NCBI GenBank assembly: GCA_038203025.1
Contig: JBBREK010000001.1
Coordinates: forward strand, 6,165-70,164
Reading direction: 5' to 3'
Length of the DNA stretch: 64,000 bases
DNA from: Planctomycetota bacterium
Lineage (GTDB): Bacteria > Planctomycetota > UBA11346
The notes beneath the pieces are model-generated. The model had not been told where the DNA came from and did no database searches. It saw nothing but the letters and a program-made list of their open reading frames with translations. How positions within the stretch are numbered: position 1 is the first letter of the stretch; each line of letters starts with the position of its first letter. A program made the position numbers and the translations under genes. Positions 3,283 to 60,958 of the stretch are shown here, in pieces.

Positions 3283-3399
3283 AGTTGGCCACAGAGGCAC
3301 GGAGATCCACAGAGGGCCACAGAGCCGGCAGATTGGGATACGGGAGGCAGGATTGGCCGACTACTGACCAATGAATCTGCCCTATGTCTTTCTCTGTGG
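3283..3399. terminator. Structured convergent-terminator region. It has the octamer CCACAGAG three times (3289, 3307, 3317) and an inverted copy CTCTGTGG (3392-3399), plus a GGCAGATT/AATCTGCC stem.
   Basis: The repeats were read directly. The region lies between the hemH stop (3275) and the menE stop (3411) and is locally AT-richer. Confidence 0.35.
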
Positions 3400-3410
3400 C
3401 AAGATCGACG

Positions 3411-4658
3411 TTATCCGAACCACGTCCTCACTATGTGGCGCTGCCTTTTGCCCAAAGCCGTGCGTGGCAGGGCGGGGACGATCAGCCAGCGACGCGGGCG
3501 CTTGAAGCCGGCGAGGCGAGGTTGCAGCCAGGCGTCGAGGGCAGCAGGGTCTAGACCGTCCTGCACCACCACCACGGCGGCGGCAACCATCTCGCCCCAG
3601 GTCGCGTCGGGCAGTCCGACGACGCAGGCCTCCGCAACCAGCGGGTGCTGCTGCAGCACCGCCTCGACCTCCGGGGCGGCGACGTTCTCGCCGCCGCTGA
3701 TGATCAACTCGGCGGCCCGGCCAATGATGCGCAGACGGGTGTCTCGCAGCTCGCCAAGATCGCCGGTGGTGTGCCAGGTCGGGGCTGGTTCCAACTTGCC
3801 GTCGACCTCGTAGCCGTCGAAGCACATCGGCCCACCAACCAGGATGCGCCCGTCATCGATCCGGACCTGTGCGGTGGGCACGGGCAAGCCATCGAGCGTC
3901 ACCATGCTGCCCATCTCGGTCAGGCCGTAGGTCTCGCGCACTGGCCAGCCCAGTCGTCGGGCCGCTGCTGCCACGGCCGCATCCAGCGGGCCCCCGCCGA
4001 TCAGCGCGTGCTGCAGTCGCGGGGGCGGCGGGGTGCCGGCTGCAACCAGCCGGGCGAGCATGGTCGGCACCAGGCTGGCGCCGGTGGCGTCCGCTCCGGG
4101 CGCGGCCTCCAGGTCGACGGCGCCGCCGCAGGCCAGGGCGCGCAACGTCGCCATGATGCCGCCGACGTGATCGAGCGGCAGCGGCAGCGACCAGTGATCC
4201 GCCGCGTTGAGGCCGAGGGCGGCGACGTGCGCGGCCACCGCTGCCGCGATCGCTGATCGGCCCAGGCGCACTGCGCGCGGCGCGCCGGTGGTGCCGGAGG
4301 TGAACAGGACAAGGGCGCCGCTGATTGGGCCGACGGTTCCGACCGGACCGGCGAAGACTGGCGGCATGGCCACGGTCGGGACGGCCTCGGCCAATGGGTG
4401 CGTGGGATCGGCGATGGTCAGTCGTACGGCGGTACGGGCATGCAGGGTACGCAGCTCAGCGATGGTCAGTCGACGGTTGAGCGGCACCACGGTCAAGCCA
4501 AGGCGCAGGGCCGCCGCCAGCAGCTGCACGGTGGCTGGCGTGTTGAGACCGCCGAGGGCGATGCGGTCGCCGGCGTTCAGGCCGTGATTGCGCAGCCAGA
4601 CCGTCGCCGCCGCCTCGCCTGGCCAGGCCCAGCCGTCGTCATGGCGCAGCGGCCTCAC
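3411..4658 (-). CDS. menE: o-Succinylbenzoate-CoA ligase (AMP-binding enzyme).
   Basis: Adenylate-forming motifs are present (LFTSGTTGAPRAV, TYGLTEMG, GDLGELRD..IIGRAAELIISGGENV). The only plausible start is the GTG at 4658, which overlaps the menC stop as GTGA. The ORF-track N-terminal extension to 5267 is Arg-rich antisense junk. Confidence 0.7.
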   Translation of the reverse strand: MRPLRHDDGWAWPGEAAATVWLRNHGLNAGDRIALGGLNTPATVQLLAAALRLGLTVVPLNRRLTIAELRTLHARTAVRLTIADPTHPLAEAVPTVAMPPVFAGPVGTVGPISGALVLFTSGTTGAPRAVRLGRSAIAAAVAAHVAALGLNAADHWSLPLPLDHVGGIMATLRALACGGAVDLEAAPGADATGASLVPTMLARLVAAGTPPPPRLQHALIGGGPLDAAVAAAARRLGWPVRETYGLTEMGSMVTLDGLPVPTAQVRIDDGRILVGGPMCFDGYEVDGKLEPAPTWHTTGDLGELRDTRLRIIGRAAELIISGGENVAAPEVEAVLQQHPLVAEACVVGLPDATWGEMVAAAVVVVQDGLDPAALDAWLQPRLAGFKRPRRWLIVPALPRTALGKRQRHIVRTWFG

Positions 4659-5572: not shown

Positions 5573-6438
5573 GGCCAGTGCGCCAGCCCGGCGACGGCGG
5601 TGCCGGCGGTGAGCAGCTGGACCAGGGCAGCCAGTCCGAGGCAGCGGTTGAGCTCACGGCCACGGCTGGTCCACACCATCGCGGTCAGGGCCAGGCCGCC
5701 GACCAGCGCGACGCCGGCGGCATCGGGGCAGCCGGCCAGCCACCAGGCGGTGATCGCCGCGGCATGCAGTCCCGTATGGTAGATGCGGGTGCCGCGGTCG
5801 CCCAGTCGCACCGCCAGGGTGCGCTTGCCGGTGGCGGCATCGGTGCGCAGGTCGCGCAGGTTGTTGATCGCGATCAGCACGGTGGCCTGCAGCCCCACTG
5901 CGACCGCGGCCGCCCACCAGCCCGGGGCCAGGGGCCAGTGTGGGGCCTGCACCCAGGCCGCGCCGAGCACGGCGACCAGGCCGAAGAAGACCAGGACGAA
6001 GGCGTCGCCGAGGCCGAGGTAGGCCAGCGGCGCCGGCCCAAGAGTGTAGGCCAGCGCCGCGATGACGCTGGCGGCGCCGACCAGCCACAACTGCCAACCG
6101 CTTTGGCTTGCCAGCCAGCCCCCGATCCCGCTTGCCAACAGCAGCACGACGGCTGCGCCGACAAGCATCGCGTGTGGCGTGATCAGGCCGCTGGCGACGG
6201 CGCGCGGCGGACCAAGGCGGTCGGGTGTGTCGGCCCCACGCAGGGTGTCGCCGGCGTCATTGGCGAAATTACAACCGATCTGCAGCAGTATCGCCCCGGC
6301 CAGACAGCCCACTGCCAGGTCCAGGCGCCACGGGCCAGCGGTCGCGGCCAGGGCGGTACCCACCGCCACCGGTGCGAGGGCGGCAGCCAGCGTCTTGGGT
6401 CGGGTGGCCATCAGCCAGGCACGCAGCATGCGTGCCAT
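5569..6438 (-). CDS. menA: 1,4-Dihydroxy-2-naphthoate polyprenyltransferase (UbiA family).
   Basis: Polytopic membrane protein with the UbiA-type Asp-rich motifs (NFANDAGDTLRG, INNLRDLRTD). Its stop overlaps the menC start (ATGA). Confidence 0.8.
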   Translation of the reverse strand: MARMLRAWLMATRPKTLAAALAPVAVGTALAATAGPWRLDLAVGCLAGAILLQIGCNFANDAGDTLRGADTPDRLGPPRAVASGLITPHAMLVGAAVVLLLASGIGGWLASQSGWQLWLVGAASVIAALAYTLGPAPLAYLGLGDAFVLVFFGLVAVLGAAWVQAPHWPLAPGWWAAAVAVGLQATVLIAINNLRDLRTDAATGKRTLAVRLGDRGTRIYHTGLHAAAITAWWLAGCPDAAGVALVGGLALTAMVWTSRGRELNRCLGLAALVQLLTAGTAVAGLAHWP

Positions 6439-6491
6439 GCTCTGCGGCCCGGCCGGCCCGCAACTTGCGTGCCCGGCACCGGCTCGCGAGC

Positions 6492-7085
6492 ATGCCAGCC
6501 ATGCAGCATGACCTGAACCGCATCGCCAACTGCTGCGGTGTGCTCTTCCGCCGGACCTCTGCCGGCATCATCCACCACGCCACGGCCTGGAGCGTCGGCC
6601 CAGGCGAATGGGTTTCGGCGTGGCCCGGTGACGAGCCCGAGGATCCGGTCGACGGCCTGCGCATGATGCTCACCCGTGACGGCAGCGAGCACGCGGTCAG
6701 CGGCTGGGAGTACGACGGCGGCATGCTCGGCCTGGTCGGCCCCGACGTCGGTGCCGTGCTGCCGGTGCACCCTGACGGCGCCGCGCTGCACAAGCGCGAC
6801 CGCCTCTTTGCCCTCGGCTATCCCGACATGATCGACCACCCGTCGATCCGCCTGGCCCGCCGCGAGCTGACCCCCGAGCTGTACTTCCCCTATCTGTGCC
6901 CGTGGAGCATGCAGGGCCACCTCTGCCTGTTCACCAGCCAGGACGGCTTCCTCACCGGCCGCTGCTATCCCGGCATGGCCGGCGCCCCGGTCTTGGCCGA
7001 GGACGGCACCGTGGTCGGCGTCCTGCTCGGCGGCGACGCCAGCCCGGACCACCCGCCGCTCAGCCGCTTCCGCCGCCTGGCGTAG
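6492..7085 (+). CDS. Hypothetical protein with a trypsin-like C-terminal motif in which the catalytic Ser is replaced (CYPGMAGAPVL); a possible pseudo-protease.
   Basis: The ORF-track start at 6225 overlaps menA, so the ATG at 6492 or 6501 was chosen. The GxxGxP..L..G..VG pattern resembles the chymotrypsin-fold GDSGGP box, but with M-A in place of D-S. Confidence 0.4.
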   Translation: MPAMQHDLNRIANCCGVLFRRTSAGIIHHATAWSVGPGEWVSAWPGDEPEDPVDGLRMMLTRDGSEHAVSGWEYDGGMLGLVGPDVGAVLPVHPDGAALHKRDRLFALGYPDMIDHPSIRLARRELTPELYFPYLCPWSMQGHLCLFTSQDGFLTGRCYPGMAGAPVLAEDGTVVGVLLGGDASPDHPPLSRFRRLA

Positions 7086-7090
7086 TCCCC

Positions 7091-7137
7091 CGTAGCACCG
7101 GCTTTAGCCGGCCCGGCCGGCGGGCTTCAGCCCGCCG
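7091..7137. repeat. REP-like twin-hairpin element, copy 1 (CGTAGCACCGGCTTTAGCCGG-CCCGG-CCGGCGGGCTTCAGCCCGCCG).
   Basis: Two perfect stems: CCGGC-TTTA-GCCGG and CGGCGGGC-TTCA-GCCCGCCG. A second copy lies at 56301..56347. The element sits between convergent gene ends, and the TAA stop of the GT2 gene lies in the loop of hairpin 1. Confidence 0.5.
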
Positions 7138-7871
7138 AACAGCTGCATTCCTGTCCATGCGACAGCTGTCCACAGCACATGCAGCACGGTTGCCGGATTC
7201 CCCCGCCCATGCCGGCTGGCGAACCAGCGCAGATAGCGCAGCCGCACTGCCAATGGCGGCCGCTGTCCACCGACCGCCCGATGGTGCGCCCGCAGTCCGC
7301 TGGCGAAGCGCAGGCGGAAGCCCGCCCGGTGCAGCCGCCAGCAGAAATCCCGATCCTCGCCCAGGGCATAGCCCGGCATCCGTGCATCGAACCCGCCCAC
7401 CGCCAGTGCCGCCGCACGCCTGACCGCGAAGCAGCAGCCGAACAGCTCGCGCGTCGGACGATCGCAGCGCCGGCTGGTCAGTCGCCGCGCATCGCGCAGG
7501 CAACCCAGATGCAGCAGGCGATGCAGCCGCCGCGCCCACCCCCCGCGTGTCTCGATCACCGGCCCCCAGGCGGCGAACTCCGGCTCAGCCGCTGCAAGCT
7601 CCAGGATACGCTGACCGAGATCGGGCGCGACGTCGGTATCGTCATCAAGAAACAGCACGATCTCCGCGTCGGTCGAGGCCAGCAGCACATTGCGCGCCGC
7701 AGGTAGGCCGGCGAGGTCAGGGCGATGCAGGACGCTGACACCCGGGTGCGAAAACGGTACGGGGGACTGGTCGCAGATGACCAGGAGACCGTGGCAGGAT
7801 TGCAGCGAGGGCAGGGAGCGTGCCATCTCCTGGTTGCGATTCTTCGTCGGAATGGCGAAGATGAGACTCAT
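7104..7871 (-). CDS. Glycosyltransferase family 2.
   Basis: Has an N-terminal IFAIPTKNRNQE..SL motif, a DDD motif (LFLDDDTDV) and GGFD..YALGEDRDFCWRL. The start was placed at the ATG that overlaps the upstream stop as ATGA. Confidence 0.7.
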   Translation of the reverse strand: MSLIFAIPTKNRNQEMARSLPSLQSCHGLLVICDQSPVPFSHPGVSVLHRPDLAGLPAARNVLLASTDAEIVLFLDDDTDVAPDLGQRILELAAAEPEFAAWGPVIETRGGWARRLHRLLHLGCLRDARRLTSRRCDRPTRELFGCCFAVRRAAALAVGGFDARMPGYALGEDRDFCWRLHRAGFRLRFASGLRAHHRAVGGQRPPLAVRLRYLRWFASRHGRGNPATVLHVLWTAVAWTGMQLFGGLKPAGRAG

Positions 7872-8989
7872 GGGATCATACTGCGGGCAATGCGCAGGTA
7901 CTCCGGTAGCTTGCAGCTCCAATCCAACCGTGTTTCGGCGAAGCGGCGGAGCGACTCCGCAGCGTTGGCGGGAAGAGCGGCGGCGAACTCGACGATTGCC
8001 GTTGGATCCAGCGCGTCGTCGCCTCCTTGCAGCTGCAGCACCCCAGGCAGGCCGGTGGGCAGGTCCGGATCATCGTAGGCATAGATGAATGGCAGCCCGC
8101 GCGCTGCGTATTCCCTGGACTTTATCGGACAGGCCTGACGCAACCCGGCCCTATGCAGGGCCAGGGAGGCGATGCCGAGGTGGGCTTCCGCGAGTGTGCG
8201 GTCCAGATCGGCGGGCGTCTGCTGACCCAGATTGGTGACCGAGTAGTGCGGACCATTTTCGTCTGGCAGGTGGGATCTGCCGGCGATCCGCAGATTGATG
8301 CGGTGCGGGCCACGGAAGGAGCGCAGGCCGGTGACGAGGCGGTCCAGGCCATGCCAAGGAGCTTCGGTGCCGAGCGCCGCCACGATGTCGAGGTCTCCGC
8401 CGGCGAAGCGCCGCCGCCCACGGAAAGGTGTCCCGTGGCAGTCCACCCCATTGCTGCACCACGCCGTCGGCAGGCCAGGAGCAGCACGGGAAAGCGAGGC
8501 GCTGATCTCCGGCGTGACGCCGACGGCGCCGGCGATATGCCGAAGATAGATGGGCAGTAATGCATCGGCGAAGCGGTCCCAGGGTCGGGCTGATGTCGAC
8601 CCGCGGCGGGCAGCCCGCTCGCTGACCGGGTCGCTGTGATGCTCGCTGATGATGCGCGTCCCCCACCGTTGCAGGAACCAAGGCAGGGACAGGTCGGCTG
8701 TACCGGCGTGACGCAAGATGCAGCGCCGGGTCCCTTGCGGGATAGATCCGCCGATCCAGTGGTGTCGCCAGAGCCGCGATCCCAGCAGCCATCCTGGCGA
8801 GCCGCCGCACTCCAGCCAGGTGAGGCCAGGACTGGACGGCAGATCTGCGCCGCTGACCACGAGGAAGTGTATCGGGCAACCGCTGCGGATGGCGGCCGCG
8901 CCCTGCTGGCGCAGCTTGCCTATGATGCCGGGCCACGGGTCTGGGCGGGGCATCCAGGTCATATGGAGCACCCCATCGGACGTGTTCAT
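7868..8989 (-). CDS. Glycosyltransferase, GT1 fold (GT4-like).
   Basis: The C-terminal region KSREYAARGLPFIYAYDD resembles the GT4 nucleotide-binding half. It overlaps both neighbours by 4 bp. Confidence 0.55.
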   Translation of the reverse strand: MNTSDGVLHMTWMPRPDPWPGIIGKLRQQGAAAIRSGCPIHFLVVSGADLPSSPGLTWLECGGSPGWLLGSRLWRHHWIGGSIPQGTRRCILRHAGTADLSLPWFLQRWGTRIISEHHSDPVSERAARRGSTSARPWDRFADALLPIYLRHIAGAVGVTPEISASLSRAAPGLPTAWCSNGVDCHGTPFRGRRRFAGGDLDIVAALGTEAPWHGLDRLVTGLRSFRGPHRINLRIAGRSHLPDENGPHYSVTNLGQQTPADLDRTLAEAHLGIASLALHRAGLRQACPIKSREYAARGLPFIYAYDDPDLPTGLPGVLQLQGGDDALDPTAIVEFAAALPANAAESLRRFAETRLDWSCKLPEYLRIARSMIP

Positions 8990-23216: not shown

Positions 23217-23864
23217 TCAGGCCAACAGGCCCTTGGTGGACGGCACGCCGGTACCGCTGACGCGGATGGCCTGGCGCAGGGCGCGGGCGAAGGCCTTGAA
23301 GCCCGCCTCGATGATGTGGTGGCTGTTGCGGCCGGCGCGCTGGTGCAGGTGCACGGTGATGCAGGCCTGGTCGGCGAGGGCGCCGAAGAATTCCGGGACC
23401 AGCTCGGTGGCGAGGCCGCCGACTGACGCCGCTGGCGGGGCCAGTTCGTAGGTCAGCCAGCCGCGGCCGCTGATGTCTACGGTCGCCTCGACCAGTGCCT
23501 CGTCGAGCGGGCAGGCAATGTGGCCGAAGCGCTCGATGCCGGACTTGTCGCCGACGGCCTGACGCAGGCACTGGCCGAGCACGATACCGCAGTCCTCGGT
23601 GGTGTGGTGGCCATCGATGTGCAGATCGCCCTTGCACGACAGCCGCATGGTGGTGCCGCTGTGCTTGGCCAGTGCCTCAAGCATGTGGTCGAGGAATCCG
23701 ATGCCGGTGGCGATCTCGCTGGCGCTGCTGCTGCTGCTGCTGCTGCTGCCGCTGCCGCTGCCGCTGCCGCTGCCGCTGCCGCTGCCGCTGCCGCTGTCGA
23801 GATCCCAGGTGGCGGTGATGTCGGTCTCGCGCGTCTTGCGCGTCACGGTCGCGGTGCGGGGCAT
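23217..23864 (-). CDS. hisB: Imidazoleglycerol-phosphate dehydratase carrying a simple-sequence-repeat-encoded (SG)8S8 loop insertion.
   Basis: Has the GIGFLDHML and KGDLHIDGHHTTED...NSHHIIEAGFKAFARALRQA motifs of the dehydratase. The insertion DSGSGSGSGSGSGSGSGSSSSSSSS lies in a loop that is 5-8 residues long in E. coli HisB. Confidence 0.85.
   Translation of the reverse strand: MPRTATVTRKTRETDITATWDLDSGSGSGSGSGSGSGSGSSSSSSSSASEIATGIGFLDHMLEALAKHSGTTMRLSCKGDLHIDGHHTTEDCGIVLGQCLRQAVGDKSGIERFGHIACPLDEALVEATVDISGRGWLTYELAPPAASVGGLATELVPEFFGALADQACITVHLHQRAGRNSHHIIEAGFKAFARALRQAIRVSGTGVPSTKGLLA
23725..23796. repeat. In-frame microsatellite (CTG)8(CCGCTG)8, which is (AGC)8(AGCGGC)8 on the coding strand, inside hisB.
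   Basis: Read directly from the sequence. Confidence 0.9.
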
Positions 23865-28690: not shown

Positions 28691-28787
28691 GGAACGACCG
28701 GAACCGCTGGGTCGGGCAGGACCGCGGGCTTCAGTCCGCGAGCGGATCCCGACGCGGGCTGAAGCCCACGGTCCTGGTCGGTCCTGG

Positions 28788-30536: not shown

Positions 30537-30590
30537 GCGGGGGGAAGACGTACAGGGGGTTCGGCGGCACGCCAGCCATGGGAAGGCAAA

Positions 30591-30632
30591 GGCGGAAGGC
30601 GGAAGGCGGAAGGCGGAAGGAGGAAGGCGGAT
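30591..30632. repeat. (GGCGGAA)4-6 heptanucleotide tandem repeat in the ABC-F/ndvB divergent promoter. A complementary CCTTCCGCCTTCCG lies 50 nt downstream at 30685..30698.
   Basis: Read directly. Confidence 0.9.
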
Positions 30633-39438: not shown

Positions 39439-40527
39439 TCAGCGCAGTAACGCCACCGCCGCGCCGGCCACGGCCAGCAGCAGGAGGAGAATGATTACCG
39501 GCATCAGCCAGGCGGGCATCGTGCGCGGTGCGGCCAGGCGCTTGCGGAAGCGGCCTGCGTCGTCGGGCCGTTCGAGTACGGCGCGTAGCTCACGGATCAG
39601 CTCGGTGGCGCTCTGCGGACGTCGGGTCTTGTCCTTGTGCATGGCCCAACGAATGCAGGCGTCGACTCCGGCCGGCAGGTCGGGGACGTGCGTGCGCGGT
39701 GCTGGCGCCTCGCTGCGCAGGACCATCTCCATGACCTCCTGCGAGCTGCGGCCGTTGAATGGCAGACGGCCGGTGACGGCGTGGTAGAAGGTGGCGCCAA
39801 GGGCGTAGCAGTCGCTGCGGTGGTCGGCCAGCTTGGCGTCGAGCACCTGCTCGGGCGGCATGTAGGCCGGTGAGCCCATGGCGACACCGGACAGGGTGAG
39901 TTGTTCCCAGGCGCCGCTGCCCTCGATCTGCTTGCCGAAGCCAAGGTCGGCGAGCTTGGCGACAGTGCCGCCAGCAAGCATGATGTTGGCCGGCTTGACG
40001 TCACGATGGATGATGCCGCGCGCCCCCGCCGCCTCGAGCGCCCCGGCGACCTCCAGCACCCAGCCGGCGGCGACGCGCCAGGGGATGCGGCGTTGATGCT
40101 CGATCGCCTCTTCCAGGCTCTGGCCTTCGACCAGCTCCATGGCGAGGAAGAACTTGCCCTGGTCGAAGCCGAAGCCGCGTACCCCGACGATGTGGGGGTG
40201 GCTGATCTTCTGGGCCAGCTCGGCCTCGCGCTTGAAGCGGGCGAGGAACTCCTGGTCGCGGGCTGATTCCTCGTTGAGCACCTTCAGCGCCACTTTGCTG
40301 CCGTCAGCGGCAGTGGCCTCGTAGACCGTGGCGGTGGCGCCCTCGCCAAGCTTCCGTCCGACCTGGTACTTGCCGAGCATGCGCTCGCCGGGCTTGCTTG
40401 GCACCGGGCTGCGGATCGGCACGCGCAGGACCTGGCCGCAGTTCGGGCAGGGCAGGCGGCCATCAGCCGGCATGGTTGCCGGGACGAACTTGTGCCGACA
40501 GGCTGGACAGCGGAAGGCTTGGGCCAC
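39439..40527 (-). CDS. Ser/Thr protein kinase with an N-terminal zinc ribbon and a C-terminal transmembrane anchor.
   Basis: Zinc ribbon CPACRHK...CPNCGQ. Kinase subdomains GEGATATVYEA, VALKVL, HRDVKPANIML, DLGFG and SPAYMPPE. C-terminal hydrophobic helix. Confidence 0.8.
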   Translation of the reverse strand: MAQAFRCPACRHKFVPATMPADGRLPCPNCGQVLRVPIRSPVPSKPGERMLGKYQVGRKLGEGATATVYEATAADGSKVALKVLNEESARDQEFLARFKREAELAQKISHPHIVGVRGFGFDQGKFFLAMELVEGQSLEEAIEHQRRIPWRVAAGWVLEVAGALEAAGARGIIHRDVKPANIMLAGGTVAKLADLGFGKQIEGSGAWEQLTLSGVAMGSPAYMPPEQVLDAKLADHRSDCYALGATFYHAVTGRLPFNGRSSQEVMEMVLRSEAPAPRTHVPDLPAGVDACIRWAMHKDKTRRPQSATELIRELRAVLERPDDAGRFRKRLAAPRTMPAWLMPVIILLLLLAVAGAAVALLR

Positions 40528-43716: not shown

Positions 43717-43848
43717 GGGTTTGGGTTTGGGTTTCGGTTTCGGTTTGGGTTTCGGTTTGGGTTTCGGTTTCGGTTTCGGTTTCGGTTTCGGGTTCCGAGC
43801 CCCAATCCCCAATCCCCAATCCCCAATCCCCAATCCCCAATCCCCAAT
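43717..43848. repeat. Compound microsatellite of 12 copies of (GGTTTS, a mix of GGGTTT/CGGTTT) at 43717-43788, followed by (CCCCAAT)7 at 43800-43848. It lies in the 334-bp leader/intergenic region upstream of copA.
   Basis: Read directly. Confidence 0.9.
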
Positions 43849-44015
43849 CCCAGATGGTCGGGGTACGCCGTCCGGGGAGTGAGCGACCAAGCGCGTGGCG
43901 ATCGATAGGGCCAGCGTGTGTGGTAAGTTCCACGCGCGCGTAGCGAGCCTGGAGCGACCCCCGCCGCCTGGCGAATCGACGCGCGTATGCGCGGCGTGTC
44001 GAGCGGGGTCCGGGG

Positions 44016-47000
44016 TCAAGGCCCCGGCGGGGGGCCTGGGGGGCTTGGCCCCCCAATCCGATAGCCCGTTACGGCGCCCGTCTGATCCGCAATCACGACC
44101 ACCCCCGGCAGCAGCAGCGGCGGGGTGATGGCTGGGGCGCCATGGGCGATGCGACGCACAGTCTGGCCGTCAGCGAGGCGGATGACGGTGATGCCACCGG
44201 TGTCGTCGGCGATGGCCACCAGGCCGCCACCGAGGCCGACCTGCAGCGGCTTGCCTAGGATTTTGCTCCGCCAGCGCGGCTTCACCGGGTCAGTTGCCCA
44301 GGTGGCGATGTCGACGGCGCGGTCGGCACGGGCCAGGACCACGGTGTCGCCACTAGCGGCAGGTACGGCTGGACCGGCCTCGGTCAGCCAGGGGTGCGGC
44401 TGCAGGACGGCGCCGGATTTGCCCAACTGGATCAGATCGACGCCGGCGACGGTGGCGACCAGCAACCGTCCACCTGGCAGTTCGGCCCAGGGGCCGGTGC
44501 GCGCTGCCTTCAGCGACAGGCGTTCGGATTCGCTGCCGTCCTCCTCAATCACGCGCACGGTCAGGTCGTCGATGACGACCAGTTTGTCGTCGCTGCGGCG
44601 CAGCAGCGGCTGGGCGGTGCCGGCGACGCCGGGCAGCCGCCAGATTTCGCGGGCGCCATCACGGGCGATGACCGCGCGGCCACCGGGGGCGTCCTCGATC
44701 GATACGGTGAGGCGTCCACCGGCTCGGTAGACCAGTTCGATGTCGAGCAGGGCGAGCGGCGCGCCGGCCAGGCGACGCACTGGCACGGCACGGTCGAGCG
44801 TGGGCAGGATCTGGCGCTGTTCGCCGTCGGTGGTGGCGAAGGTCCAGCCGCCTTCGACCGCGAGCCACCATGGGACCAGGGTCGTACCCGGCAGGGTCAG
44901 CGGCCGGATCGCCCCCGAGGCGGTGTCGATGGCGGTGGCGCCGTCGGCAGACAGCACCACCACCGCGGACGCGGCCGGGTGCAGACGGATCCACGCCGGT
45001 CGCGTCGCCGGGGCCGGCAGGCGCCACACCGGGGCGGGGCCGAGCGTCACGTCGAGCACGCGCTCGGCGGGATCGCTGGCCGCGGTCACGACGATGCGGC
45101 GGGTGGCGTAGCCCGGGGTGCCGACCTCAAGCTGGATATCTGCCGTCGCCGAACGGCAGAACCGCCCATCCTTCCCCACCAGCTCGACGTCGTTGGCCAC
45201 CAGGCGCATGGTCGGCAGCGCCGTGCCGGTGTCGGCGTCGGTGGCGCGCACCCGTCCCGGCAGGGGCAGCCCGGCGATCAGGCTGCTGGTACGTGGATGG
45301 TCGGCGGAGAAGCGCGCCGCCAGGTCGAGGGCATCTCCGTGACGGCCCTGTCCGCGCGCGGTGTCGATGGCCGAGCGCGCGGTGGCGGCCTGCGCCAGCC
45401 GGCTCTGGGCATCGGCAAGAATCGCCGCCGCCTGTGCATCGGCAACCAGCGGCCTGGCCGCGGCTACGACCTGGTCGAGGGGTGTGGCGGCATCGGCGGC
45501 CAGCCGGGACAGCTCGGCGAGAGCGGTGGGGCTGGCGGTGGATTGGGTCTTGGTTGGCGGTGGCCTGGAACTGCGCGGCGGCGCGGGCTCATCGGCTTGA
45601 CGTTCTGCCGAAGCTGCAGCGGCTGCAGCGGCGGGCACCTCGTAGCCGCGCCGGAACAGTATCCGGTACCACATCCAGCCGCCCTGATTGGCGGCGGCGA
45701 ACTCGCGCAGCCGGTGGCTGCGATCGGCCGGGTCGGCGAGGCTCTCCAGGCGGGTGCGTTCGCGTTCGGCTAGCAGGTTGTGGACCACCGGTGGCCAGAT
45801 CCACAGGTTGACGCCAAGCAACGCGGCGCTGATCGCGCCGATGAGCAGGCCGCGCAGCCGCCGCCGCGAGCGGGCCCGGTGCGCCGCATCCTGGGCCAGG
45901 TTGGCGAGCCGACGGCTCTCGCCGGTATCGCGAGCCAGTTGCGAGGCGCGCTTCCACTCGCCGGCGGCGACCTCCCAGCTGCCCGAGGCGGCGAGGCGTT
46001 CGGCGCCGGCGGCGATCGCCGCCACCTCGGCCTTCAGACCACGTTCGCGGGCGCGATCGATGGCGCCGGCTGACAGCGCGCTGGAGCTGGTGCCGCCCTT
46101 GCGCTCGCCGGGCAATGGTGTGGCCATGCCGGGGAAGGGGGTGGCGAGGGTCGGCGGAGGCACCACCTGCGAACCGCTGGCGGTCGACAGCGGTGTGCGC
46201 GGACTGCGCGACCCGATGGCTGGGGCCTGGGCGGTGCGCGACCCGATGGCCGGGGCTGGTCCGGTCCGCGATCCGATGGCTGGGGCCGGTCCGGTGCGTG
46301 ACCCGACGGCGGGGGTGGGGCCGGCGTGCGGCGGCGACACTACTACGGCATCGATCGGGCGCAGCCAGTCGGGGATGACCGGTGGTGCGCCCGGGTCCGG
46401 CGAGGCGGTGGGCGCCGGCACGGTGCGCTGCCGTCCAGATGGCTTGGCCCCGGGGATGGGGGCGCCGGCGCCGCTGGGCAGGTCCGAGGTCGGGGCGGCG
46501 CGCTTGCCCGAGCTGCCCTGGCCGGTGGCATGCTGCACCAGGGCGCGGATCGGACCGTTGGTCTTGCGCAGCACCGAGGCGGTGCCGGTGAGCGCCACAA
46601 GCAGCTTCTCGGCATCATCGATCAACTCGCGCAGTTCGAAGCAGCGGTCGTCGGGTTTCTTCGCCATCATCCGGCGGACCAGCGACTCGACCCGCGGGTC
46701 GAGGTCGGCGCGGTATGTGCGCAGGCTCGGCACCGGATCGACCTTGTGCTTGAGCATGATGCTGAACGGGGTTTCGCCGTCGAACGGCAGGTGCCCGGTG
46801 AGCATGAGGAACGCGGTGCAGCCGAGGTTGTAGACGTCGCTGCGCGTGTCGACCTCGACGCCGTCGCACTGCTCTGGGCTCATGAACGCCGGGGTGCCGA
46901 CGCGCACCCCGACCGAGGTCACCTCGGAGTCGCCGGCGCTGCCCTTGGCCAAGCCGAAGTCCGAGACCTTGCAAAGACCGCTGATCGCGACCATCAGGTT

Positions 47001-47885
47001 GTCGGGCTTGATGTCGCGATGGATCACGCCCTTCTCGGTCGCCTGTTCGAGGCCGAGCAGAGCCTGGCGGAGGATGTCGAGGGTCTCGATCTGCGACAGC
47101 GTCGGCTGGCGCCGCAGCACCTCGCCGAGGTCCCAGCCGTCGACGTACTCGATCACCATGAAGTAGACGCCGAGCTGGGGATCGTCACCGAAATCGTAGA
47201 TCTGCAGGATGTTGGCGTGATTGATGCGCGCCAGGCTCTTGGCCTCGCGCTCGAAGCGCTGGATGAAGTTGCGATTGCGCGCCAGCTCGGGCGGCAGGAC
47301 CTTGATTGCGACGCTGCGGTCGAGCGACAGCTGGCGGGCGTGGTAGACCGCGCCCATGCCGCCCTCGCCGAGTTTGCGGTCGATCTGGCAGCCGCGCAGG
47401 ACGCGGCCGATCAGGCGGTCGCCGCCGCCCGCGCCGCCAGGGGTCAGGCGGCCAGTGGAGCGTTGGAAGCTGGTGCCGCAGGCCGGGCAGTTCTGCTCGT
47501 CGGCGCCGGGCGACCCGACGAAGCCGTGTCCGCACACCGGGCAGCTGGCCTTCTCGCCATGCAGGTTGTCGGTCGACGGGCGGAAGGCGAGTTCGCTGAC
47601 CGGCAGGGGGCTGCGCCCGTCGCGGGCCGATTCCTGTTCCAGCCGGTCGAAGGGCAGGTTGCCGGGCGTGGACGACCTCGCCGCCGGCTTCGGCCTGGGC
47701 GGGGCGCGCCGCTGGGTCAGCGGAGCGGGCGGCACGGCGCCGTCCTCGACCGGCAGGTATTCATCGCTGCTCTGCCCTGGCATCCAGTGGTGGTTGCAGC
47801 TTTCGCAGATGACCGTTGTGCCGGCCTCGATCGGCCCGGGATGGGCCGACCGGCAACGTGGGCAACGATGGACGGAGACGGTCAT
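44016..47885 (-). CDS. Large Ser/Thr protein kinase of 1289 aa. It has N-terminal zinc ribbons, a kinase domain, Pro-rich decapeptide repeats, a transmembrane helix and a C-terminal beta-propeller-like extracytoplasmic region.
   Basis: Two CxxC..CxxC ribbons. Kinase motifs GEGGMGAVYHA, HRDIKPDNLMV, DFGLAKG and SPEQ. (GPAPAIGSRT)x4 repeats. The C-terminus has periodic repeats like VVIADQTGAVTGYRI. Confidence 0.75.
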   Translation of the reverse strand: MTVSVHRCPRCRSAHPGPIEAGTTVICESCNHHWMPGQSSDEYLPVEDGAVPPAPLTQRRAPPRPKPAARSSTPGNLPFDRLEQESARDGRSPLPVSELAFRPSTDNLHGEKASCPVCGHGFVGSPGADEQNCPACGTSFQRSTGRLTPGGAGGGDRLIGRVLRGCQIDRKLGEGGMGAVYHARQLSLDRSVAIKVLPPELARNRNFIQRFEREAKSLARINHANILQIYDFGDDPQLGVYFMVIEYVDGWDLGEVLRRQPTLSQIETLDILRQALLGLEQATEKGVIHRDIKPDNLMVAISGLCKVSDFGLAKGSAGDSEVTSVGVRVGTPAFMSPEQCDGVEVDTRSDVYNLGCTAFLMLTGHLPFDGETPFSIMLKHKVDPVPSLRTYRADLDPRVESLVRRMMAKKPDDRCFELRELIDDAEKLLVALTGTASVLRKTNGPIRALVQHATGQGSSGKRAAPTSDLPSGAGAPIPGAKPSGRQRTVPAPTASPDPGAPPVIPDWLRPIDAVVVSPPHAGPTPAVGSRTGPAPAIGSRTGPAPAIGSRTAQAPAIGSRSPRTPLSTASGSQVVPPPTLATPFPGMATPLPGERKGGTSSSALSAGAIDRARERGLKAEVAAIAAGAERLAASGSWEVAAGEWKRASQLARDTGESRRLANLAQDAAHRARSRRRLRGLLIGAISAALLGVNLWIWPPVVHNLLAERERTRLESLADPADRSHRLREFAAANQGGWMWYRILFRRGYEVPAAAAAAASAERQADEPAPPRSSRPPPTKTQSTASPTALAELSRLAADAATPLDQVVAAARPLVADAQAAAILADAQSRLAQAATARSAIDTARGQGRHGDALDLAARFSADHPRTSSLIAGLPLPGRVRATDADTGTALPTMRLVANDVELVGKDGRFCRSATADIQLEVGTPGYATRRIVVTAASDPAERVLDVTLGPAPVWRLPAPATRPAWIRLHPAASAVVVLSADGATAIDTASGAIRPLTLPGTTLVPWWLAVEGGWTFATTDGEQRQILPTLDRAVPVRRLAGAPLALLDIELVYRAGGRLTVSIEDAPGGRAVIARDGAREIWRLPGVAGTAQPLLRRSDDKLVVIDDLTVRVIEEDGSESERLSLKAARTGPWAELPGGRLLVATVAGVDLIQLGKSGAVLQPHPWLTEAGPAVPAASGDTVVLARADRAVDIATWATDPVKPRWRSKILGKPLQVGLGGGLVAIADDTGGITVIRLADGQTVRRIAHGAPAITPPLLLPGVVVIADQTGAVTGYRIGGPSPPGPPPGP
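46206..46325. repeat. Four tandem ~30-bp repeats inside the kinase gene, coding the decapeptide repeats GPAPAIGSRT.
   Basis: gcgcgacccgatggctggggcctgggcggt appears four times with drift. Confidence 0.7.
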
Positions 47886-49990
47886 GGGCTGCCCCCCGTC
47901 TCTGGCGTGGATACGGGGATGGAGACGGGCACGGTGTCGGGCTTCGTTGCGTCGTCGTCCACGGGAGCGGTTGGCGCGGTGATCGGCAGGGCCGGCTGCT
48001 CGCCCGGGGCGGTTGGCGTCACCAGGGCGACTCGGGTTGCGGTCCGTCCAAACCAGCCCTGGCGCACGGCCACTACGGCAAGCACGGCGGCAGCGATGAC
48101 CAGCAGGCCGAGGATGATCTGCCAGGCCCGCCGGCGCCAGGCGAGGCGCTGGCGGAGGCTGGCGATGTCGCGTTCCAGTTGCACGTCGCTGACCGACGAA
48201 CTGGTGGTCGACGCGGCACTGTCGCGATGCATCTCGCGGCCTTGTTCCAGCAGGGTCAGCGCCCCACGCAGGTCGCCGCGGCCGACCGCGGCGCTGGATT
48301 TGCCGCGCAGTTCAGCGATGCGCGCATCATGCTCCTGCTTGCGCGCCTCGCGCTCCTTGCTGCGCAGCACCGAGCGGGCGCGCTTGTCCTGCTCGCGGTC
48401 GGCCAGGCGTGCCCACAGCACCGCCGCCTCGCCGTAGCGGCGGGTCTCGAACAGGCGCTGCGCCTCGATCTCCTGCTGCTGCATGGTGGCAGCGTCATTG
48501 CCCTCACGCAGGACGTGGCCGCAGCGGCCGCACACCGAAGCGTCCTGCCGATTGAGGTTGCCGCACATCGGGCAGGTCTGGGAGTCAGGGGCGCGCCGCG
48601 GTGCGCGATCCTGGCGGTCCGAACCGGCACCATGGCGCTCTGAGCCATGCCCACGCACCGATTCGGTGCCGGGGGCCGAGCGGCCGCTCAACCCGGTCCG
48701 CGACTGGGGCGGAGCATCGGCTGGTGTCGGCGCCACCGTGACGGGGGCGACGGCCTGCGGTTCGGCAGGCGGCGGCGACTGCACTGGCGGCGGCAGCGGC
48801 ACCAGCGCTGGCAGGTCGATGGTGGGGCGTGGCCGGTTCTCGGGATCGCCGCGGCCGAACACGCCCATCTGCACGCCGACGTCGATCCACGCCTGGCGGC
48901 AGGCCTCGGCGTCCGCGTAGCGGTCCTCGGCCTTTTTGGCCAGCATGCGCATGACCACGGCCGAGAGTGTCGGCGGGATGCCCGGCACCACCTCGTGCGG
49001 TTGCGGCGGCGTGTGTTCGCGCTGCTTGGTCATCACCTCGAAGGAGGAGTTGCCGATGAACGGCTTCTGCCCGGTCAGGGCGAACCACGCCGTCACGCCG
49101 AAGGCGTAGAGGTCGGAACGCACGTCCAGCTTCTGCCCCATGCACTGTTCGGGACTCATGTAGGCCGGCGTGCCCATGGCCAGACCGACCGCGGTGAGGT
49201 CGGTGTTGTCATCCTTGCGCGAGACATCCTTGGCCAGGCCGAAGTCGGCGATCTTGGCGACGTTGTCCTTGGTGATGAGGATGTTGTCCGGCTTGATGTC
49301 GCGGTGGACGATGCCTTGCGAGCCGACGTGGCTGAGGCCGGCCAGGCACTGCACGATCAGGGGCACCACCTCAGCGGCCGGTAGGATCAGCCGGTCGGAG
49401 ATCAGCTTGGCCAGCGAGTTGCCGTCGACGAACTCATTGACCATGAAGCGCAGGCCGTCGATCTGGCCGAAGTCGTACACCCCGACGATGTTGGGATGGG
49501 TGATGCGGGCGATCGCCTTGGCTTCGCGCTCGAAGCGCTTGATGAACTCATCGTTGTCGTACAGCGCCTTGGACAGGATCTTGATCGCGACCACGCGGTC
49601 GAGGCTGACCTGGCGGGCCTTGTAGACCTCGCCCATGCCACCCTGGCCGATCTTAGCCACCAGTTCGTAGCCGCCGAACATGCGCCCGGCCGCCAGCCGG
49701 GTGGACGGCTGCTCGCTCGGTGCTTCCGGCGGCGGGGCGGGGACGGCCGGCGCCGGTTCCGGGGCTGGGGGTGGGCCGTCCGGCATGCTGACTGCTGCAG
49801 ACAGGTCGGGGCCGCCCTGGGCGAACTCGACGTCGACATCACTGGTAGTCGGCTGACCCGGAGGGGTCAAGCCATGCACCTCGGGTAGCGTCAGGCGCGA
49901 GCCGGGCTGGTCCTTCCCCGCGTCCAGCCCGGTAACGTCGGGCAGGCTGGGCAGGGGCGGCGCAGGATCAGATTCGTTGTCAGCTGCCAT
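47882..49990 (-). CDS. Ser/Thr protein kinase with a C-terminal zinc ribbon, coiled coil and transmembrane anchor. It is translationally coupled (ATGA) to the downstream kinase.
   Basis: Kinase motifs GQGGMGEVYKA, HRDIKPDNILI, DFGLAKD and SPEQ, then CPMCGN...CGRCGH, then a hydrophobic helix. The start is uncertain: ATG at 49990, or the alternative start at 50038 given by the ORF track. Confidence 0.75.
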   Translation of the reverse strand: MAADNESDPAPPLPSLPDVTGLDAGKDQPGSRLTLPEVHGLTPPGQPTTSDVDVEFAQGGPDLSAAVSMPDGPPPAPEPAPAVPAPPPEAPSEQPSTRLAAGRMFGGYELVAKIGQGGMGEVYKARQVSLDRVVAIKILSKALYDNDEFIKRFEREAKAIARITHPNIVGVYDFGQIDGLRFMVNEFVDGNSLAKLISDRLILPAAEVVPLIVQCLAGLSHVGSQGIVHRDIKPDNILITKDNVAKIADFGLAKDVSRKDDNTDLTAVGLAMGTPAYMSPEQCMGQKLDVRSDLYAFGVTAWFALTGQKPFIGNSSFEVMTKQREHTPPQPHEVVPGIPPTLSAVVMRMLAKKAEDRYADAEACRQAWIDVGVQMGVFGRGDPENRPRPTIDLPALVPLPPPVQSPPPAEPQAVAPVTVAPTPADAPPQSRTGLSGRSAPGTESVRGHGSERHGAGSDRQDRAPRRAPDSQTCPMCGNLNRQDASVCGRCGHVLREGNDAATMQQQEIEAQRLFETRRYGEAAVLWARLADREQDKRARSVLRSKEREARKQEHDARIAELRGKSSAAVGRGDLRGALTLLEQGREMHRDSAASTTSSSVSDVQLERDIASLRQRLAWRRRAWQIILGLLVIAAAVLAVVAVRQGWFGRTATRVALVTPTAPGEQPALPITAPTAPVDDDATKPDTVPVSIPVSTPETGGSP

Positions 49991-55559: not shown

Positions 55560-56084
55560 ATGGAACGCCACCCCATCGCCCCCGAGGACTTCGCCTGCCG
55601 GCCGGTGCAGCTGCTGAGCGAGCGCTGGATGCTGCTGGGCAGCGGTGACGGTCCCGAGCGCTGGAACGCCATGACCGTGTCGTGGGGCGGCTTCGGCGTG
55701 ATGTGGGCGATGCCGATCGCGCTGGTCACCGTCCGGCCCAGCCGCCACACCTACAGCCTGCTCGCCGCCTGTCCGGATTTCACCCTGATGGTCCTGCCTG
55801 AGCACCTGCGTCCGGCCCTCGACCTGTGCGGGCATCGCAGCGGTCGCGATGGCGATAAGTTTGCCGATGCTGGCCTGACGCCGCGTCCTGCCGTGGCTGG
55901 GCGTGCCCCCGATCTGGCCGAGGCCGAACTGTGCATCTGCTGCCGCACCGTCGGCTGGGTCGACCTGCAGACCGCCGGTCTGGTCGACGAGATGGTGGCC
56001 CGCGTCGAGGGTCCGCCCGCCGACCAGCACCGCTGGTTCGCCGGCCGCATCATCGGCATCAGCGGCACTGCCGCGTGGAGCTAG
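55560..56084 (+). CDS. Flavin reductase-like (FMN-binding split-barrel) protein.
   Basis: Has the NAMTVSWGG motif and a ~170-aa length typical of the family. Confidence 0.55.
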   Translation: MERHPIAPEDFACRPVQLLSERWMLLGSGDGPERWNAMTVSWGGFGVMWAMPIALVTVRPSRHTYSLLAACPDFTLMVLPEHLRPALDLCGHRSGRDGDKFADAGLTPRPAVAGRAPDLAEAELCICCRTVGWVDLQTAGLVDEMVARVEGPPADQHRWFAGRIIGISGTAAWS

Positions 56085-56086
56085 TT

Positions 56087-56110
56087 AGCATCAGCGTCAG
56101 CATCAGCATC
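56087..56110. repeat. (AGCRTC)4 hexamer repeat directly after the flavin-reductase stop.
   Basis: Read directly as agcatcagcgtcagcatcagcatc. A decayed copy (gcgctgacgcgc) follows, and a terminator hairpin lies about 13 bp further downstream. Confidence 0.7.
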
Positions 56111-56123
56111 GCGCTGACGCGCT

Positions 56124-56148
56124 CCTGGAGGGGTCTCGACCCCTCCAG
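56124..56148 (+). terminator. Hairpin CTGGAGGGG-TCTCGA-CCCCTCCAG (a 9-bp perfect stem) downstream of the flavin-reductase gene.
   Basis: Read directly. Confidence 0.5.
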
Positions 56149-56300
56149 ACCTCCCCGACCGGGCTCTGCCCTGGACCCGCAAGCCCGGCTCGCTGACGCT
56201 CACCGATTGCGCGTCCCACGTCCAGCGAGGTGTGCTCGGCTCCGGCCAAGCCTACGCCTGCGCCACCATCAGGACGTACCTTCGCGACGTACTTTCGATC

Positions 56301-56347
56301 CGTAGCGCCGGCGTTAGCCGGCCCGGTCGGCAGGCTTCAGCCTGCCG
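56301..56347. repeat. REP-like twin-hairpin element, copy 2 (CGTAGCGCCGGCGTTAGCCGG-CCCGG-TCGGCAGGCTTCAGCCTGCCG).
   Basis: 42 of 47 bp are identical to 7091..7137. The second stem carries compensatory G>A / C>T changes. The TGA stop of the ligase-like gene lies in the loop. Confidence 0.5.
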
Positions 56348-60865: not shown

Positions 60866-60958
60866 GAGTCGGCACTATCTGGGGGGTCCGACGGGATCCA
60901 GGGCTGATCCAGGACTGCTCCAGGACCGCGGACTTCAGCCCGCGGTCCTGTCCGGCAC

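Follow-up and report, generated by a model that had tools for sequence, protein, structure and literature searches.

Within the 64-kb window (the whole stretch of DNA analysed here), two near-identical 47-nt sequences, each folding into a pair of hairpins, lie at the 3′ ends of two minus-strand genes. What kind of element is this: a member of a mobile repeat family, a terminator shared by converging genes, a conserved structured RNA, or the end of a transposon? We consider it most likely, with a probability of roughly 0.8, that the two sequences are singleton copies of a GTAG-type REP family, linked to a RAYT transposase and resident in an uncultured high-GC Planctomycetota lineage. The window was first interpreted from its letters alone (below, the sequence-only reading), as carrying a genome-specific, REP-like bidirectional terminator under structural selection, and parts of that interpretation have held up better than others.

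Direct inspection of the sequence confirms both the coordinates and the 42 of 47 identical positions reported for the pair (Table 1). The five differences, given as copy 1/copy 2 in the numbering of copy 1, are 7097 A/G, 7103 T/G, 7117 C/T, 7122 G/A and 7133 C/T. A degenerate 47-mer pattern matches exactly two sites in the window, where 0.00 are expected from 100 dinucleotide-preserving shuffles, and the same pair was listed independently by a repeat finder. An unfiltered covariance-model scan of the whole window likewise returned only these two full copies, the next best score being 19 bits. Those 19-bit matches belong to another hairpin family, and the window's second repeat family was not found in the loci fetched from other genomes.

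Both copies fold as two adjacent hairpins, as had been proposed, in the minimum free energy and the centroid structures and as RNA and DNA alike. As RNA the hairpins have stabilities of -29 to -34 kcal/mol on either strand; the fold z-scores are only -2 to -3, modest values because any sequence of 75% GC folds well, and the window as a whole has ~70% G+C. Two of the five differences, 7122 G>A and 7133 C>T, are the partners of one base pair, so that the change in stem 2 is indeed compensatory. Among the traits by which REPs are recognized, the short GC-rich palindrome with a stem-loop is present (here as two stem-loops, of 5-6 and 8 bp), and a conserved GTAG stands at one end of the palindrome in both window copies. 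Neither copy has an inverted REP partner within reach; both are singletons, and neither forms the doublet by which REPINs are defined.

Table 1. Positions of the twin-hairpin elements, their parts and the genes that they adjoin. Positions are those of the window, or of the related metagenome contig JFJP01020569.1 (L173) where so marked.
Feature	Sequence	Position	Strand	Remarks
Twin-hairpin REP, copy 1	window	7091-7137	+	CGTAGCACCGGCTTTAGCCGGCCCGGCCGGCGGGCTTCAGCCCGCCG; covariance model 71.6 bits
GTAG head of copy 1	window	7092-7095	+
Hairpin 1 of copy 1	window	7098-7102/7107-7111		5 bp; loop TTTA at 7103-7106
Spacer between hairpins of copy 1	window	7112-7117
Hairpin 2 of copy 1	window	7118-7125/7130-7137		8 bp; loop TTCA at 7126-7129
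Extra GTAG head	window	7082-7085	+	6 nt 5′ of copy 1; within the block absent from the L116 empty site
Inserted block relative to the L116/L117 empty site	window	7082-7134	+	~53 nt; boundaries good to ~2-3 nt
Twin-hairpin REP, copy 2	window	56301-56347	+	CGTAGCGCCGGCGTTAGCCGGCCCGGTCGGCAGGCTTCAGCCTGCCG; covariance model 71.6 bits
GTAG head of copy 2	window	56302-56305	+
Hairpin 1 of copy 2	window	56307-56312/56317-56322		loop GTTA
Hairpin 2 of copy 2	window	56328-56335/56340-56347		loop TTCA at 56336-56339
GT2 glycosyltransferase gene (P0001)	window	7104-7871	-	255 aa as called in NCBI; ORF 7104-7922
Wzy_C / O-antigen-ligase-like gene (P0121)	window	56337-57596	-	419 aa
Trypsin-like peptidase ORF	window	6225-7085	+	start uncertain; convergent with the GT gene
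ORF ending in the GTAG of copy 2	window	55931-56305	+	no Pfam match
Flavin-reductase-like gene	window	55560-56084	+	nearest supported plus-strand gene at copy 2
Twin hairpin	L173	6850-6895	+	8 nt upstream of the RayT start
RayT ORF	L173	6904-7515
Twin hairpin, inverted	L173	7505-7550	-	loop 2 complement supplies the TGA of RayT; tail ...YLAAG, then stop

Copy 1 lies at the end of a GT2 glycosyltransferase (GT) gene and copy 2 at the end of a Wzy_C / O-antigen-ligase-like gene, and at both sites the minus-strand stop codon does sit in a hairpin loop. The TAA of the GT gene (7104-7106) lies in the complement of loop 1 of copy 1, and the TGA of the Wzy_C gene (56337-56339) in the complement of loop 2 of copy 2. 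Copy 1 thereby encodes the last 10 codons of the GT (GGLKPAGRAG), read through hairpin 2 to the stop in loop 1, while the last ~3 codons of the Wzy_C gene (tail ...DAAG, then stop) lie with their TGA within hairpin 2 and loop 2 of copy 2. The further statement that each copy faces the end of a plus-strand gene stands for copy 1 and is doubtful for copy 2. At copy 1, the trypsin-like ORF, whose Trypsin_2 match of 22.6 bits falls short of the 27.6 cutoff, ends 5 nt upstream of the element with a TAG (7083-7085) that is part of the extra GTAG. The plus-strand ORF ending in the GTAG of copy 2 did not pass a rough coding test based on GC3, and the nearest supported plus-strand gene ends 217 nt upstream. 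For annotation this means that the last 3-10 codons and the stops of at least three window genes are derived from the repeat, and that the C-terminal LKPAGRAG tail of the GT is not a conserved protein motif.

The proteins of the window have homologues labelled Planctomycetota, and the DNA of orthologous loci was compared to see these gene ends with and without the element. In L113 (GT 75% identical) and L114/L115 (76%) the site is filled: the twin hairpin stands at the same point of the GT gene, with the sequence ...ctc/GGCCGGCTGAAGCCGGCCGTCCGTGCCGGCTGA/AGCCGGCGCTAC there and yet another compensatory stem, and the downstream gene, here a different one (PatA_N/TPR), takes as its stop the TAG of the GTAG head. 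In L116/L117 (GT 72% identical) the site is empty: the GT ends ...AELLRPGARSA, then stop, and its gene overlaps the convergent trypsin-like orthologue by 26 nt, whereas in the window the element separates the two genes. The alignment with L116 has a clean gap of 53 columns over the inserted block, and the comparison of filled with empty site reveals neither a target-site duplication nor terminal inverted repeats at the insertion of copy 1. In P0018, the nearest relative of the L113 type, the GT ends ...AQMLGRR, then stop, and gene coordinates give a 4-nt overlap with the neighbouring gene; the GT site is therefore empty there too. The element-encoded tail occurs in only four of the 60 closest GT homologues. 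An alignment of this tail (LKPAGRAG) with the LRPGARSG of other orthologues, as a conserved C-terminus, was considered and rejected, the underlying DNA being unrelated and interrupted by the 53-nt gap in L116.

Because the GT site is filled in some relatives and empty in others, copy 1 is an insertion of ~53 nt that replaced the last ~8 codons of the GT gene. Its presence in two sub-lineages could reflect one old insertion followed by losses, instead of two insertions. The stop codon in the loop most plausibly reflects insertion into the 3′ end of a gene and so follows from where the element landed. For copy 2, the C-terminal tails of the Wzy orthologues differ in every one, and the two orthologous Wzy loci with DNA (L118, L119) carry no element after Wzy. 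Over ~75 kb of orthologous DNA from relatives, the only copy is the one at the GT gene.

The compensatory pair in stem 2 had been taken as a signature of selection on structure. A seed alignment of 16 distinct copies (A2) was gathered with a pattern that fixed hairpin 1. In this alignment hairpin 1 is invariant, while in hairpin 2 five of the eight pairs are changed on both sides with 99% of cells paired, a result reached by none of 500 shuffles; in slid registers the pairing collapses to 10-47%. Because the A2 pattern had fixed hairpin 1, a second scan, of metagenomes, was run with GCCGGCNNGGNNGGNNGGCTTCAGCC. In this pattern hairpin 1 is constrained in its 3′ arm, and hairpin 2 in the outer GG of its 5′ arm and in its three loop-proximal pairs; the loop is fixed as well. 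The GTAG head, the other arm of hairpin 1 and those inner pairs of hairpin 2 that vary are free. It gave 55 matches, of which ~21 are true copies and the rest coding-sequence look-alikes. In ~19 of the 21 true copies GTAGCGCCGGCTTYA stands upstream, though it had been left free in the scan, and in hairpin 2 the free partner tracks the free position of the 5′ arm. Position 4 of that stem takes G-C, C-G, A-U, U-A and G.U.

A model-fitted alignment of 27 distinct copies (A4), largely from the metagenome scan, extends this pattern. The covariation in five of the eight pairs of hairpin 2 bears out structural selection on stem 2: 98.1-98.6% of cells are paired, as against 13-56% when the partners are slid, and across A4 six pairs are changed on both sides, in 29 cells, again matched by none of 500 shuffles. 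The G.U pairs fall exclusively on the GTAG strand. Taken with the recovery of GTAGCGCCGGCTTYA, the covariation in both alignments shows that the GTAG and hairpin 1 are conserved as sequence and hairpin 2 as shape.

Could structure of this kind serve the end of the transcript? The sequence-only reading made bidirectional termination the defining function of the element, and the alternative that survives best is that it is mainly a bidirectional terminator or mRNA 3′-end stabilizer, selected at convergent gene ends, with its repeat nature secondary. The hairpins are certainly very stable as RNA. A rough survey of 40 copies, based on ORFs and GC3, placed ~10 of them no more than 32 nt after the stop of an ORF on the GTAG strand, or providing its TAG, and ~9 around an opposite-strand stop, which falls opposite loop 1 or loop 2; the remainder lie farther off or beside gene starts. 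The mainly extragenic or 3′-end location expected of REPs is thus found, as far as a rough survey goes, and both window copies overlap the last codons of genes. The restriction of G.U pairs to the GTAG strand also fits a function in the transcript, as argued for other GTAG REPs by Di Nocera et al. (2013), but G.T pairs are equally compatible with the folding of a single DNA strand.

Several observations nonetheless make the terminator or stabilizer reading unlikely. Neither hairpin has a run of T behind it on either strand (GAACAGC, CGTCGGC and, on the minus strand, TGCTACG come next), and a terminator scan was blank at both sites, so that a classical bidirectional terminator finds no support. 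Moreover, the GT gene would cut short its own message if its last 10 codons held a terminator, and the orthologous gene pairs with empty sites do without the element. Copies also occur in other settings: three between divergent genes at L089, others upstream of gene starts at L092 and L094, and a pair around the RayT gene described below. In E. coli, the hairpins of transcribed REPs are known for protecting mRNA 3′ ends and for stalling ribosomes close to the stop codon. By analogy, protection of the mRNA or hindrance of ribosomes would be a plausible side effect of stable transcribed hairpins here as well.

The REP reading, which we prefer, predicts a dispersed family, and it is the distribution of the element that departs most clearly from the proposed genome specificity. 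A pattern scan with GTAGCNCCGGCNTTAGCCGG over one genome per species (596 Gb) gave at least 112 loci among the matches listed, of which, by our own estimate, a few tens could be chance matches in a search of that size. Among the matches listed, recurrent ones are concentrated in particular assemblies, with several each: more than 20 loci in the Planctomycetota MAG SLQH01, at least nine in a Verrucomicrobia MAG, at least seven in a Terriglobia MAG, at least three in Opitutaceae, at least two in Blastocatellia, several in Saprospiraceae/Lewinella and in Planctomycetia, and a tandem array in Candidatus Roseilinea. Many of the loci listed are inverted pairs of the form TTCGTAGC..//..GCTACGAA. The element is all that these loci have in common with the window.

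Copies of the whole twin hairpin, 85-91% identical, occur in SLQH01, CAZZAM01, CAZZJC01 and JAFLCQ01, all of them Planctomycetota assemblies, with at least 12 twin-hairpin loci in JFJP01 contigs, three in Ga0172380 and several each in CAZZAM01 and CAZZJC01. The family is therefore not genome-specific, and its GTAG/hairpin-1 module reaches into many phyla, no fewer than five besides the Planctomycetota: GTAGCNCCGGCTTTAGCCGG is common, almost letter for letter, to repeat families in Planctomycetota, Verrucomicrobiota, Acidobacteriota, Bacteroidota (Saprospiraceae/Lewinella) and Chloroflexota. Two copies per 64 kb is a low density for a REP family, of which a genome typically has tens to hundreds; the related assemblies JFJP01 and SLQH01 have at least 12 and more than 20 loci. 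At L153, L157 and L161 the element forms inverted dimers with the GTAG heads outward, 16-25 nt apart, and each dimer folds into one long REPIN-like hairpin. In SLQH01 the twin hairpin also occurs inside a longer duplicated unit of ~370 nt at contig ends.

The link to a transposase comes from a related metagenome contig, JFJP01020569.1 (L173), which carries the single ORF found among the metagenome loci by an HMM of RayT homologues. The protein matches Pfam Y1_Tnp (PF01797) at 26.5 bits (cutoff 23) and the NCBIfam model NF047646, "REP-associated tyrosine transposase", at 76.3 bits (E = 2e-21), just below the equivalog cutoff of 80. It is ~200 aa long with an N-terminal extension, contains the HUH motif MPNHVHAVL and the motif YVVRNPVQAGLV, and matches no PDB chain by sequence. 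Two twin hairpins bracket the gene with their GTAG heads outward, which is the classical REP-RAYT arrangement; with the GTAG heads of the window copies, this flanking of a RayT gene upholds the description of the repeat as REP-like. The flanking is seen on this related contig, outside the window, and no RayT gene lies within the 64-kb window itself. The tail of the L173 RayT (...YLAAG) resembles that of the window's Wzy_C protein (...DAAG).

The JFJP assembly also holds a GT orthologue (76% identical) and a Wzy orthologue (79% identical). With more than 12,000 contigs, JFJP01/02 is probably a metagenome assembly; we infer that the RayT and the GT and Wzy orthologues come from one organism. A second RayT-like gene, reached through an approximate E. 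coli RayT query and then checked with Pfam and NCBIfam, lies in a Chloroflexota locus (L044) beside at least nine tandem units of the hairpin-1 module. Its product is 33% identical to the L173 RayT and its homologues are named RayT in the sources; the search for those homologues listed 120 proteins, among them only Chloroflexota and no Planctomycetota RayT.

The presence of a dispersed, transposase-flanking family also bears on two further explanations. The strong covariation of hairpin 2 and the conservation of the hairpin 1 sequence across assemblies are what one would expect of a conserved structured RNA, cis-regulatory or small, that happens to be present in two copies. We regard this as very improbable. 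The whole window stays below the Rfam gathering thresholds, and the local matches are at chance level (the best scores 14.6 bits against a required 41.2), the element lies on either strand relative to genes, and its neighbours (GT, Wzy, PatA_N/TPR, RayT and unrelated genes) have no consistent association with it. Presence and absence at orthologous sites and the inverted dimers speak against a structured RNA too, and REP families have themselves been described as having compensatory variants (Di Nocera et al., 2013). Nor do we give any real credence to an IS200/IS605-type end or a MITE from some other transposon: the ends of IS200/IS605 do carry subterminal hairpins recognized by a Y1 transposase, and the ~370-nt unit of SLQH01 might suggest a larger element, but the window insertion is a block of just ~53 nt with neither terminal inverted repeats nor target-site duplication, its two hairpins are not inverted repeats of each other, neither tnpB nor tnpA adjoins the window copies, and the flanked transposase matches the RayT model and has the same element inverted on both sides, whereas the left and right ends of an IS200/IS605 element differ.

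For the RAYT-linked REP family that we favour, the following course of events may be proposed. The unit has two parts: a sequence-conserved recognition module, GTAGC followed by a GCCGGC-TTYA-GCCGGC hairpin, and, after a spacer of 5-6 nt, a second hairpin conserved in shape and not in sequence. By analogy with REP/RAYT and IS200/IS605 systems, RayT would bind the folded, GTAG-bearing strand as single-stranded DNA, cut it and rejoin it, and new copies would arise through this cutting and rejoining without duplication of the target. Copy 1 would have landed where two convergent genes overlapped, exchanging ~8 GT codons for 10 codons encoded by the element and giving both genes new stops, the TAA from the complement of loop 1 and the TAG from a GTAG head. 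Copy 2 would have shortened or lengthened the Wzy protein at its variable C-terminal tail, and the gene now ends at the TGA of the loop 2 complement. Stop codons present in the loops (TTYA, complement TRAA) and in the GTAG head would have made such insertions tolerable.

The REP families described so far thereby gain a RayT-linked one, hosted by uncultured high-GC Planctomycetota, and the current picture of REP/RAYT systems stays unchanged. The element supplies a clean example, filled site against empty site, of a REP that resolves the overlap of two convergent genes, and the contrast between hairpin 1 (sequence) and hairpin 2 (structure) suggests, in a form open to test, which of the two the transposase may read. 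A wider reading would join three things: a distinct REP architecture, with a sequence-fixed GTAG/hairpin 1 for the transposase and a shape-fixed hairpin 2; a RayT-REP pair that is ancient or has been transferred between phyla; and a preference for certain targets. Taken jointly, these seem to us rather doubtful. If they were true, the occurrence of GTAGCNCCGGCTTTAGCCGG across phyla would point to a RayT-REP pair of great age or to its transfer between phyla, and the use of the same GT codon in two sub-lineages, each with empty sites in its nearest relatives, would imply a preference for overlapping convergent gene ends.

How does the element compare with known systems? The closest are the GTAG REPs, named for the tag of the largest REP superfamily, which occur in PVC bacteria such as Opitutus terrae, Rhodopirellula baltica and Planctomyces (Di Nocera et al. 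2013, BMC Genomics 14:522, PMC3733652). According to that survey, most GTAG REPs are found between ORFs that converge or run in the same direction, frequently fewer than 20 bp from an ORF 3′ end; their GTAG termini often provide the TAG stop of the flanking ORF, some sit at the ends of coding regions, and alternative complementary stems and G-T pairs are common in the sub-families. The family described here shares with them the short GC-rich stem-loop, its loop 4 nt long, that has GTAG at one end, the alternative complementary stems and G-T pairs, the location at ORF 3′ ends with TAG stops drawn from the GTAG, the mixture of singletons and GTAG-outward dimers, and the association with a RAYT. 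It differs in being a fixed head-to-tail pair, a GTAG hairpin followed by a second hairpin without GTAG; tandem (HT) dimers were absent or rare among the REPs surveyed (PMC3733652). The exact sequence of the element was not found in the text and supplementary files of that paper that were searched.

The arrangement at L173 recalls the REP/BIME and TnpA-REP system of E. coli (Ton-Hoang et al. 2012, PMC3333891; Messing et al. 2012, PMC3479197), where a HUH/Y1 transposase gene is likewise flanked by inverted REPs. There, too, a GTAG 5′ of the hairpin is the recognition element, and by analogy action on single-stranded DNA would be expected here. The E. coli REPs are single imperfect hairpins that alternate as Y and Z pairs in BIMEs, unlike the two-hairpin unit of the window. 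The inverted doublets at L153, L157 and L161, each forming one long hairpin, are like the REPINs of Pseudomonas fluorescens, which are linked to a typically single-copy RAYT and, like the RAYTs, are mostly inherited vertically (Bertels and Rainey 2011, PMC3116915). In contrast to REPINs, both window copies are singletons, and a doublet here is made of two twin-hairpin halves whose inner hairpins are unlike in sequence.

Two further comparisons concern the position at gene ends. As with the Rickettsia palindromic elements (RPE) and the intragenic REPs of O. terrae, palindromes are tolerated in coding sequence and add amino acids to the protein; the insertions described here, by contrast, lie at the very 3′ end, where they close the frame, and are not read through in frame. 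With rho-independent terminators the element has in common a GC-rich hairpin at convergent gene ends, but it lacks a U-tract and overlaps coding sequence. Against this background, the compensatory stem variants, the overlap with stop codons and the placement between convergent genes are not new. What is new is the specific family, its fixed two-hairpin unit and its hosts, the uncultured high-GC Planctomycetota.

Copies of the twin element, a GTAG-headed REP of two hairpins, also occurred as inverted doublets at three loci of other assemblies (see table), where the paired twin hairpins are spaced 16–25 nt apart and each doublet folds as a single long branched hairpin (-83 to -94 kcal/mol). Within each doublet the two inner hairpins differ in stem sequence. 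In addition, some copies are adjoined by an extra GTAG head, a duplication which might have arisen by slippage, or because the head was cut and rejoined more than once.

Repeats and hairpins in the window and at loci (L-numbers) from other assemblies
Feature	Location	Remarks
Inverted twin-hairpin doublets	L153 10431-10550; L157 1350-1468; L161 2944-3071	GTAG heads outward
Duplicated GTAG head, GTAGTCCCCCGTAGC	window 7082-7095	
Duplicated GTAG head, GGCCGGCGCTAC x3	L114 10491-10526	L114/L115
Duplicated GTAG head, CGTAGCGCC x2	L140 ~7022-7040	
~370-nt unit with twin hairpin, tandemly duplicated	L073 3437-4134	reverse strand; also many SLQH01 contig ends
Second REP-like hairpin family, CAGGACCGCGGRCTTCAGYCCGCG	window 28718-28742(+), 28750-28775(-), 60920-60950	no GTAG head
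Perfect hairpin, 11-bp stem, CTGGAGGGGTC-GA-GACCCCTCCAG	window ~56124-56150	
At least nine tandem 90-nt units, GTCGTAGCAYCGGCTTTAGCCGGC in each	L044 2550-3330	Candidatus Roseilinea (Chloroflexota)
Mutually similar stretches, 61-78% identity	window 39847-40248, 46869-47267, 49145-49546	repeat families D4, D5, D7
(GGTTTC) x13	window 43718-43795	simple-sequence array
(CCCCAAT) x7.4	window 43800-43851	simple-sequence array
(GCTGCC) x11.7	window 23727-23796	tandem repeat
(GGAAGGC) x7.4	window 30581-30631	tandem repeat
30-nt unit x3.7	window 46205-46315	tandem repeat

In the metagenome-assembled genome SLQH01, the twin hairpin lies within the tandemly duplicated ~370-nt unit, with a ~250-nt arm on either side of the element; this unit recurs on many contigs, with assembly breaks falling at the same places, and a search for a protein family in it identified none. 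The bins CAZZAM01 and CAZZJC01, source of six further loci (L013, L021, L024, L057, L089, L097), bear the submitter labels Brocadiaceae or Candidatus Kuenenia. These labels look doubtful; G+C at the six loci is 60–73%, and CAZZAM01 contains P0041, a homologue of the window lineage's glycosyltransferase.

The D4, D5 and D7 stretches of the window point to three paralogous genes in a 10-kb region. The (GCTGCC), (GGAAGGC) and 30-nt repeats are probably coding low-complexity stretches. The two simple-sequence arrays adjoin each other. The perfect hairpin lies 40 nt 3' of a flavin-reductase-like gene (55560–56084), on the upstream side of the second twin-element copy.

The CAGGACCGCGGRCTTCAGYCCGCG family was absent from all loci of other assemblies examined for the twin element. 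In the window it forms an inverted pair, its members 8 nt apart and 3' of a plus-strand gene end, and, at its other site, one single long hairpin; it resembles the second, shape-conserved hairpin of the twin element, scoring 19 bits against the element's covariance model (R1). In the Chloroflexota locus, the tandem array directly adjoins a minus-strand gene (3319–3966) resembling those for REP-associated tyrosine transposases (RayT), which is flanked on either side by GTAG-GCAGGC-TGAA-GCCTGC hairpins.
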